From: Minisyncoccota bacterium
Lineage (GTDB): Bacteria > Patescibacteriota > Minisyncoccia > 2-02-FULL-40-12 > GWA2-44-9
DNA length: 17,798 bases
Direction of reading: 5' to 3'
NCBI GenBank assembly: GCA_017992005.1
Contig: JAGOPO010000016.1
Location: 1-17,798 of the forward strand
Part shown: piece after piece, positions 10,220 through 11,826 of the stretch
How positions within the stretch are numbered: position 1 is the stretch's first letter
Layout of the letters: the number at the start of each line of letters is the position of its first letter
The notes under the pieces: model-generated
Told to the model about the DNA's origin: nothing
Databases searched by the model: none
Seen by the model: the letters and a program-made list of their open reading frames with translations, nothing else
Translations under genes and position numbers: made by a program

Positions 10220-10729
10220 CTATTGTAGGAGCTTTTCCCATGCCGCTCGTTGGCGAGGGGAGAGATGCTGCGCTGACGATATCGCGTCTTGGAGATCGCG
10301 TACTGAAAACGATAGCACGTCATTTGGCGCGAGATTGCGACTACCGATGTCGTTGGTGAGTATGGTGACGGCCGCAATGTGTTCAATACTATCTAGCTTT
10401 ATGATCGGTTCACTTGCTGTGCAGTACAGGTCAATTGCACGCGACGAAAGGGAGTATACTCCGTCACCGGCAATGGCGAGCACATCGATGGACACGGTTA
10501 CGGGTGTCTCGCGAGGTGATTCGTAGGAGGCGGTGCGAGCGGGGAGTCGGTTCCAAAGAATTGAAGCCGTAAGAGCGATAACAGTAATCAGAATAATTGT
10601 TGTTATGACCGTATTGCTATGTGAACGAAGCCACGTATTCAGTTGCCCTCCCCATCCAGGACGAGGCGTGAATAGAGGACCGGGAAGTGAAGCTCCGGTG
10701 GGGTCCTGGTGTGAATGGAGTGCGTTCAT
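10220..10729 (-). CDS. Hypothetical single-pass membrane protein (169 aa), translationally coupled to prfA
   Basis: Its ATG overlaps the prfA TGA (ATGA at 10726-10729). The N-terminal region is followed by a TM helix ([19 protein letters not shown]) and then a soluble domain of about 100 aa with no recognised family. It occupies the position where prmC often follows prfA. Confidence 0.5.
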
Positions 10730-11559
10730 GTCGCGGACGGAGAGTCTTTGAGCCCCTCCTGAAGAGCAGTGATAATACGATCAAGGTCGCCATTGAGAAT
10801 CTTAGGAATGTTGCTCCAGCTCTCTTTGATGCGGTGGTCAGTGATTCGATCTTGAGGAAAATTGTAGGTGCGAATCTTTTCGCTGCGATCGCCAGTGCCG
10901 ACTTGTTTTCTTCGCTCTTCTGATACGTTTCCTGTTTGCTCAAGTCTATTGAGCTCGGCGAGCTTGGCTCGTAAAAGTACCATCGCTTGCTCGCGGTTGG
11001 CTAATTGAGAGCGCTCAGCACGCGCGGATATCACAATGCCAGAGGGCTTATGGTGGACGCGTACTGCCGTTTCTACTTTGTTGACATTCTGTCCTCCGGG
11101 ACCGCCAGCACGAGAAAAGGTGACTTCGATGTCGCTTGGATTAATAAAGACATCTTGCTCGGTTGCTTTCTTGAGTACGGCAACGGTAGCGGTGCTGGTA
11201 TGAACGCGGCCCGACTTTTCTGTTTCAGGAACGCGTTGCACGCGATGGGCGCCGGATTCATTTTTCATCGCGTCATAGGCGCCGGTCCCTGATATTTCAA
11301 ACGATCCATACTTAAGTCCACCGAGTGACGTGTCGTTTGATTCGATCGTCGAGAACTTCCATCCTTTTGCAATGGAATATTTCTTGTACATTTGAAACAA
11401 CTCCATCGCAAAGAGGGCGGATTCGTCACCACCTGCTCCTGGTCGGATCTCGACAATGGCTTCATTGCCAGGCGCAGATGAGCCGCCACCCTTTTGTTTC
11501 TTGGCCTGTTCTGCCCAGTATCGCCAGTCCTGTTGAAGATTTGGGTCGATGTCCTCCAT
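10726..11559 (-). CDS. prfA: Peptide chain release factor 1 (RF1), N-terminally short (about 277 aa), apparently lacking domain 1
   Basis: GGQ motif ([11 protein letters not shown]). PxT-type tripeptide ([14 protein letters not shown]) rather than the SPF of RF2. [15 protein letters not shown] is near-identical to the RF1 consensus. The first in-frame ATG is at 11559, with a possible TTG at 11574. The frame is closed upstream by the rpmE stop at 11602-11604. Confidence 0.8.
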
Positions 11560-11601
11560 GGTGATGCAAAGCAAAAACCGCCCAAGGCGGTTGTTTGCCG
11601 T

Positions 11602-11826
11602 TTACTTCGTACTTGCTGGCGTTGTGCTCTTCGCGAGGCGCTTTTTGAAGCGATCGACGCGACCGCGAGTATCTACGATCTTCTCGGTGCCTGTATAGAA
11701 CGGATGGCAGCTCGAGCAAATACTTGCATTGAGCTCTGCCTTGGTGCTACCCACGGTAAAGGAGTTGCCACATGCGCACACGGCCTTTGCTTCGGGATGA
11801 TAGGTTGGGTGGATATCAGCTTTCAT
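11602..11826 (-). CDS. rpmE: 50S ribosomal protein L31, zinc-ribbon type (about 74 aa)
   Basis: [46 protein letters not shown]...GRVDRFKKR matches L31, including the CxxC...CxxH metal-binding pattern. Start is taken at the MKADIHP methionine (11824-11826). The track's longer ORF (to 11883) adds a non-conserved extension. Confidence 0.85.

Follow-up and report, generated by a model that had tools for sequence, protein, structure and literature searches.

A release factor 1 lacking domain 1 in a Parcubacteria contig: a probable naturally minimised housekeeping termination factor

Can a bacterium terminate translation with a release factor 1 (RF1) that has no N-terminal domain 1? The question is raised by the gene prfA on contig JAGOPO010000016.1 (assembly GCA_017992005.1) of a Minisyncoccota bacterium, a stretch of 17,798 nucleotides (nt) that was analysed over its full length and is referred to here as the window. 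Virtually every housekeeping RF1 or RF2 that has been studied possesses domain 1, whose role is known mainly from truncations of the E. coli factors. The prfA gene in the window encodes a protein of 277 amino acids (aa) in which domains 2-4 of RF1 are recognisable and domain 1 is missing. We consider it very probable that this protein is the housekeeping class-I RF1, in naturally minimised form, of a Yanofskybacteria-like lineage of Parcubacteria (Patescibacteria, or Candidate Phyla Radiation, CPR). The gene and its diagnostic motifs are the following.

10726..11559, minus strand: prfA, encoding a 277-aa RF1 without domain 1 (ATG at 11559-11557, stop TGA at 10728-10726)
11422..11445, minus strand: RPGAGGDE block at residues 39-46, which makes up domain 2's first strand and turn
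11221..11229, minus strand: P111-E112-T113, the PxT tripeptide 'anticodon' of RF1
11089..11097, minus strand: G155-G156-Q157, the catalytic GGQ

Profile searches place the protein in the RF1 family. The Pfam RF-1 domain (PF00472) is complete (positions 3-116 of 116, E = 1e-37), and only the C-terminal half of the Pfam PCRF domain is matched (profile positions 100-194 of 194), leaving positions 1-99 unmatched. The NCBIfam RF1 models likewise match only from profile position 104 of 347 and 113 of 361 to the end. RF1 models score 348 and 335 bits, compared with 217 bits for RF2 and 76 bits for PrfH. The RF2 score lies below its cut-off of 370 and the protein has no SPF motif. The PrfH score lies below the cut-off of 166.65 (TIGR03072), and the gene shows no rtcB linkage. 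The ArfB/ICT1 model reaches 51 bits against a cut-off of 100 and matches only residues 139-174, whereas the protein also has domains 2 and 4. The RF1 scores themselves fall short of the curated equivalog cut-offs (348 against 400 for NF001859, 335 against 423 for TIGR00019) because domain 1 is missing. A preliminary description, made from the sequence alone, had called the gene an RF1 without domain 1 and proposed a comparison with RF1 and RF2 profiles; that comparison leaves the domain 1 region unmatched, favours RF1 over RF2, and agrees with the P-E-T tripeptide.

The RF1-invariant decoding residues are all in place. The RPGAGGDE block aligns near residue 116 of E. coli RF1, and R39, G41, G43, G44 and E46 are invariant in an alignment of 44 homologues (A1). 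P111 and T113 of the tripeptide, which lies in the sequence QRVP-E-TE (residues 108-114), are also invariant in this alignment, as is the GGQ, read from the sequence. Only eight core substitutions are specific to the clade (for example GAGGQ to GPGGQ), and none is obviously linked to the missing domain. RF1 chains in the PDB align from residue 85 (T. maritima) or about residue 110 (E. coli) onward; the match to T. maritima RF1 has E = 3e-80 over residues 85-322 of the solved chain, with about 48% identity over the core. An out-of-frame open reading frame (ORF) at 11265..11585 overlaps the gene, as had been noticed earlier. It has no Pfam match and no homology to the family, and the protein carries RF1-type motifs, with P-E-T read directly where RF2 would have SPF. 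An RF2-style programmed frameshift involving this ORF, already discounted in the preliminary description, is rejected.

An AlphaFold2 model of the 277-aa protein has a mean predicted local distance difference test score (pLDDT) of 85.3 and a predicted template modelling (TM) score of 0.79, with a confident core. The model superposes on free T. maritima RF1 (PDB 1rq0) with a TM score of 0.77 and a root-mean-square deviation of 2.7 A. The best superpositions are on compact free or pre-accommodated RF1 (6orl, TM score 0.84 normalised by target length); those on open, ribosome-bound states are weaker because of domain rearrangement. Domains 2-4 are complete, and we infer from the conserved motifs and fold that the protein would recognise UAA and UAG and release the peptide as any RF1 does.

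The conserved core is preceded by about 31 residues, compared with about 110 in E. coli, so that some 75-80 residues are missing relative to the E. coli protein. A hidden Markov model (HMM) of domain 1, trained on 67 RF1s in which an N-terminal domain is retained, yields no match when the full length of the window is translated in all six frames (best E = 0.25). As a control, an HMM from medium-length Parcubacteria forms recovers 39 ORFs in control loci. In place of domain 1 there is a short segment.

11467..11559, minus strand: N-terminal stub, residues 1-31, standing in place of the domain 1 of about 110 residues and not alignable to it
11515..11529, minus strand: aromatic motif D11-W-R-Y-W15 of the stub, found by comparison of homologues

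In the AlphaFold2 model the stub forms short helices at residues 6-9 and 12-24, at low confidence (pLDDT 52-70), followed by a disordered Gly/Ser-rich linker. Of the 120 closest homologues, 81 carry the motif DW[KR][YQH]W; with a looser definition the number rises to 97, and 20 have no tryptophan. In other members the motif decays to Y/Q-rich peptides or to nearly nothing. The N-terminus of an independently shortened form (locus L015) reads MDWQEWK, and the longer forms of Parcubacteria that we class as medium below begin with M(D/N)LxE(L/F)K. On this comparison, the stub may be the retained extreme N-terminus left by an internal deletion.

The position of the start codon bears on how much of the protein is missing, and it is framed by the upstream gene and by a stem-loop.

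11602..11826, minus strand: rpmE, encoding ribosomal protein L31 (Pfam Ribosomal_L31; stop TAA at 11604-11602)
11566..11592, minus strand: intergenic stem-loop AACCGCC-UUG-GGCGGUU followed by a U-rich run (RNA free energy, dG, -18.7 kcal/mol, z = -2.7)

The ORF on the minus strand (10726..11574) opens with TTG and encodes 282 aa. The true start is most likely the ATG at 11559, since the homologues P0001 and P0003 begin with MEDIDPN and the 277-aa product is called in four independent assemblies. The TTG at 11574 falls within the U-run of the stem-loop. The two genes share a reading frame, and the TAA of rpmE is the in-frame stop upstream of prfA. From the end of rpmE there are 27 nt before the TTG and 42 nt (14 codons) before the ATG. 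Thus the 27-nt gap of the preliminary description is correct for the TTG, and the start itself more likely lies 15 nt further downstream. Its placing of RPGAGGDE about 40 residues into the protein, against about 118 in E. coli, agrees with our count (residue 39 from the ATG or 44 from the TTG, against about 116). The in-frame TAA and the empty domain 1 search likewise uphold the view that the frame is closed by the rpmE stop and that no coding sequence for the missing residues lies upstream.

The short form is not peculiar to this contig. The identical protein occurs on six contigs, of which four come from the runs SRR25018354, SRR25018356, ERR2985266 and SRR11088367 and all have the same neighbours. 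Among 5.8 billion proteins, the best 120 homologues share 64-92% identity, and all are 249-296 aa long. They have 15-62 residues before the conserved block (median 31.5) and lack the LLPKDP linker. Their source labels are Yanofskybacteria, Paceibacterota or Parcubacteria, and the closest named relative is 'Candidatus Yanofskybacteria'. In the comparison with a close relative that is 84% identical (L087), the nonsynonymous rate (dN) is 0.10 in both stub and core and the synonymous rate (dS) is about 2 or saturated, so both parts are under purifying selection. Relatives are named 'PCRF domain-containing protein' at NCBI, because domain 1 is missing and the full-length cut-offs are not reached.

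We scanned GTDB species genomes and obtained at least 80 prfA loci, which were sorted into three N-terminal classes by how far the frame stays open ahead of the conserved block and by the start codons in that stretch. The counts describe a sample and are not a census.

Long class: N-terminus of about 110-120 aa, protein of 350-365 aa; bacteria outside the CPR, with a small number of CPR-like genomes
Medium class: N-terminus of 79-99 aa, protein of 312-341 aa; at least 22 Parcubacteria genomes
Short class: N-terminus of 8-57 aa, protein of 239-292 aa; at least 12 genomes labelled Jorgensenbacteria, Liptonbacteria, Nomurabacteria or 'Patescibacteria group'

One short-class locus (L002) is on a complete chromosome of 829 kb. 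Each locus holds a single RF-family gene, and neither RF2 nor a second RF gene was found in the 20-kb flanks of prfA in these at least 80 loci. In most of the Patescibacteria loci listed, in all classes, rpmE lies directly upstream of prfA, as it does in the close relatives L087, L088 and L089. This common synteny makes the short gene a positional orthologue of the longer RF1s. A library of representatives clustered at 50% was unsuited to mapping the spread of the short form, as RF1s of different phyla merge in it and many short representatives are truncated calls.

Neighbour-joining trees of the core with bootstrap place the window protein, its closest homologues (the P-series) and nine short GTDB forms in one clade, with a bootstrap of 74%. 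Two other short forms branch elsewhere: L015, with an N-terminus of 29 aa, is nested in a group of medium forms (99%), and L016, with 57 aa, is paired with a medium form (78%). No replicate (0%) unites all the short forms as a monophyletic group. It follows from this topology that domain 1 was lost at least twice. The trees indicate a loss ancestral to one large Parcubacteria clade and at least one independent loss in another Parcubacteria lineage. Intermediates are seen in P0103 and L016, with 62 and 57 residues before the conserved block, and the medium forms are already about 30 residues shorter than E. coli domain 1.

Several other explanations of the short gene have to be weighed. An assembly or sequencing error, or a recent truncation, could have removed the 5' part of a normal prfA, and the scores below the curated RF1 cut-offs speak for this. 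Furthermore, many short 'RF1' representatives of other lineages are truncated gene calls. However, those calls from other phyla still begin inside the LLPKDPxD linker, which is absent from the 120 closest homologues. The preliminary description had itself named an assembly error and full-length RF1s in close relatives as grounds for abandoning its view; the sequence proved identical in four independent runs, and the 120 closest proteins are all short. With purifying selection on both stub and core and rpmE directly abutting prfA, an artefact or pseudogene is extremely improbable. Alternatively, the protein might be a specialised paralogue, an accessory release or rescue factor with a canonical RF1 encoded elsewhere. 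The known factors without domain 1, PrfH and ArfB/ICT1, are indeed accessory (PMC6514570, PMC1586002). However, the gene occupies the ancestral rpmE-prfA site, where sister Parcubacteria have orthologues that bear the N-terminal domain, and its product branches inside the RF1 clade of Patescibacteria. It keeps PxT and all RF1-invariant decoding residues, it reaches less than half the PrfH cut-off (76 bits against 167), and neither the window nor the close relatives show an rtcB in its vicinity. Among the matches listed, no assembly contributes two of the at least 80 GTDB loci, which is a weak argument in the same direction. We therefore regard a paralogue as improbable.

Two further readings would supply the missing part from a neighbouring gene. 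The first of the candidates is an ORF coupled to the end of prfA.

10220..10729, minus strand: ORF of 169 aa, with a single hydrophobic helix and no function assigned by Pfam; its start codon and the stop of prfA overlap (ATGA)

If prfA were split, domain 1 could be encoded by this ORF and join the rest in trans. The overlap with the prfA stop and the retention of a counterpart downstream of prfA in L087 (172 aa) and L088 (171 aa), both of them close relatives, would suit such an arrangement. However, the domain 1 HMM gives no match in the six-frame search of the window, against the 39 matches of its control, and the ORF itself matches no Pfam family and contains a hydrophobic helix. The ORF is also absent downstream of the short prfA in L089, and no homologue of it was found in the at least 80 GTDB loci scanned. 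A split gene is accordingly very unlikely. Suppression of the rpmE stop, on the other hand, would produce a fusion in which L31 takes the place of domain 1. The two genes are in frame in the window and, where they adjoin each other in Patescibacteria, in 18 of the 33 loci (binomial p = 0.01), but this excess is largely explained by spacings of 0-6 nt (TAAATG, TAGATG) typical of translational coupling, and the other 15 loci are out of frame. Here the stop is TAA, a stable stem-loop lies between the genes, and no evidence of a read-through context was found. We give next to no credence to a read-through fusion.

A naturally minimised housekeeping RF1 can be compared with several known systems. 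With canonical RF1 (TIGR00019 / NF001859; 360 aa in E. coli, 342 aa in T. maritima, PDB 1rq0) the window protein shares domains 2-4, PxT, GGQ and the compact fold of the free state. It differs in lacking the domain 1 of about 85-115 residues, in having a non-homologous stub of about 31 residues instead, and in being net basic where the canonical protein is acidic. The medium Parcubacteria RF1s (312-341 aa, for example L009 from RAAC4_OD1_1, and L013) share the rpmE-prfA synteny and 52-58% core identity. However, they keep a helical N-terminal domain of 79-99 residues, about 30 residues shorter than that of E. coli. PrfH, or RFH (TIGR03072), is a natural class-I homologue without domain 1 that keeps a domain resembling the codon-recognition domain and the GGQ (PMC1586002, PMC6514570), but it is an rtcB-linked accessory factor of about 200 aa with an altered decoding region, whereas the window protein has PxT and adjoins rpmE. 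ArfB (YaeJ), ICT1 and C12orf65 have a homologous GGQ domain (E of about 1e-5 to 1e-7). They lack codon-recognition domains and use a C-terminal tail (ArfB and ICT1 are about 140 aa, with a basic tail), unlike the window protein with its domains 2 and 4.

The closest functional precedent is engineered E. coli RF1 without domain 1. The E. coli RF1 and RF2 truncations of Mora et al. 2003, as cited in PMC1586002, likewise consist of domains 2-4 only. According to that paper, codon-specific release in vitro does not depend on domain 1, the truncated RF1 works in vivo, and the response to RF3, which requires domain 1, is lost. These proteins are laboratory-made, and slow growth is reported for them, whereas the form in the window is natural, clade-wide, and equipped with a conserved N-terminal motif of its own. 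It is a natural RF1 variant, in keeping with what the truncation experiments predicted, yet unexpected as the fixed state of a large clade.

How such a protein might work can be outlined from what is known of domain 1. Through its helices alpha2 and alpha3 it touches L11, at the N-terminal domain, and RF3, at domain 3 (PMC3677378), and it has been termed the GTPase-interacting domain; among codon-reading release factors only PrfH is listed as lacking it (PMC6514570). In PMC1586002, domain 1 is described as the least conserved RF domain and prfC, again citing Mora 2003, as non-essential and not found in small genomes. In the proposed mechanism, domains 2 and 4, with P-E-T, would read UAA or UAG in the A site, and domain 3, with GGQ, would hydrolyse the peptidyl-tRNA. 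Without the acidic, helical domain 1, which in E. coli links RF3 with the N-terminal domain of L11, the protein would make no use of an L11-RF1-RF3 bridge, so that it would have to bind and leave the ribosome alone and be recycled without RF3. The ancestral and repeated loss implies relaxed selection on domain 1 in this group, for which the most economical cause would be that RF3 is absent or unused. Domain 1 is strongly acidic, with a net charge of -9 to -12. The remaining core has a charge of +5.7 in the short class, +2.8 in the medium class and -1.6 in the long class, a trend that is confounded by phylogeny. The basic core of the short forms is suggestive of compensation through rRNA contacts, and we speculate that a stub rich in Trp/Tyr and Lys, together with this core, might partly replace the lost binding energy.

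Several points weigh against this explanation. It scores below both curated RF1 cut-offs, the main short clade has only moderate support in neighbour-joining trees (74%), and the charge trend carries the confounding just mentioned. The genomic evidence is confined to the window and the prfA loci (+/-10 kb). Small-genome bacteria without RF3, such as mycoplasmas, keep domain 1, so the absence of RF3 is not in itself enough to make domain 1 disappear. Moreover, a reviewer comment in PMC1586002 states that RF1 is inactive on E. coli ribosomes lacking L11; the missing L11 contact may therefore need compensation.

A broader and more tentative proposal, which we think possible though rather unlikely, is that termination has been rewired across a large Parcubacteria clade. 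There would be no RF3 and no L11-RF bridge, RF2 would possibly be minimised as well, and a conserved YDW(K/R)xW stub and the basic core would form a new ribosome contact. It would belong to a more general reduction of the translation machinery in this group; the window has an EF-Ts of only 150 aa and hardly any Shine-Dalgarno motifs. A subgroup of Parcubacteria without uL1 and without the anti-Shine-Dalgarno motif of 16S rRNA has been described (PMC9297842). The L11/L1/L10/L12 operon, sought in the prfA loci for a link to this uL1-less 'OD1-L1' group, gave no matches. Reviews of CPR translation list missing uL30, uL1 and bL9 and shortened rRNAs, and release factors are not among the items listed (PMC9297842, PMC11665869). 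No description of a short RF1 in CPR or Patescibacteria, or of prfC status there, was found in the literature.

A natural clade without domain 1 in its only visible RF1, together with repeated losses, amounts to an evolutionary experiment indicating that long-term termination is possible without the domain. The short RF1s are ready-made proteins for testing the part of domain 1 in binding, fidelity and recycling, and for finding what compensates for its absence. In addition, with scores below the cut-offs, annotation pipelines could overlook prfA and mistake such genomes for incomplete ones or for ones with a reassigned stop codon. Stop codons in the window are TAA (7), TAG (4) and TGA (3), the last including prfA's own stop. 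This usage implies that the code is standard, that RF1 is needed, and that an RF2 must exist elsewhere in the genome.

With rpmE, prfA forms a unit in which it is the second cistron, and the other neighbours in the window are the 169-aa ORF and the genes for L25, S2 and EF-Ts. The usual prfA neighbour prmC is absent near prfA in the window and in all short and medium Parcubacteria loci examined, with respect to the locus only. The hairpin between rpmE and prfA appears terminator- or attenuator-like from its sequence. A stem-loop of different sequence is found at the same position in L088 (9950-10000; dG -21.8, z of about -2.7), and a G+C-rich stem-loop with a U-run recurs between the two genes in the window (11566-11601) and in L088, L006, L010, L020, L021, L026, L036, L041 and L062. 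In other relatives the rpmE stop abuts the prfA ATG directly (TAAATG or TAGATG). These arrangements suggest attenuation or translational coupling that sets the ratio of L31 to RF1. In the 33 Patescibacteria loci with adjacent rpmE and prfA the rpmE stop is always TAA or TAG and never TGA, and the shared frame arises chiefly through the 0-6-nt spacings. A stop read by RF1 just ahead of the RF1 start could in principle provide feedback on RF1 synthesis, judging from this arrangement of codons.

Other parts of the window contain the following features.

15864-16316, plus strand: EF-Ts of 150 aa, matching only positions 1-72 of 204 of the EF_TS profile
11989-14715, plus strand: protein of 908 aa with major-vault-protein repeat and shoulder domains (Vault_3, MVP_shoulder), between rpsB and rpmE
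2078-9322, plus strand: region with a secreted-type protein of 1978 aa containing PKD, Big_13, fn3 and purple-acid-phosphatase-N-like Ig domains
8020-8457, plus strand: small dockerin-domain protein, after the 1978-aa protein
8438-9322, plus strand: cohesin-domain protein, following the dockerin-domain protein
17019-17526, plus strand: tRNA cluster of tRNA-Thr(UGU), tRNA-Tyr(GUA) and tRNA-Thr(GGU)

EF-Ts is of equal length in L087, L088 and L089 and, judged by its profile coverage, appears to be a second miniaturised translation factor in the window. Seven of the eight window genes checked have no Shine-Dalgarno-like 4-mer in the 25 nt upstream of the start codon; the sole exception is the 908-aa vault-like gene. 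This gene is absent at that position in L087, L088 and L089 and was possibly acquired horizontally. The starts of rpmE and tsf have TATA-like hexamers upstream at a distance of only about 1-9 nt (with a promoter-like site at 11864-11836), which hints at leaderless or near-leaderless mRNAs. The scarcity of Shine-Dalgarno motifs fits with the report of a Parcubacteria subgroup whose 16S rRNA lacks the anti-Shine-Dalgarno motif (PMC9297842). The cohesin-dockerin pair, in an ultrasmall bacterium, is possibly a cell-surface attachment module. An ORF of 112 aa (17111-17449) overlaps tRNA-Tyr and is probably spurious.

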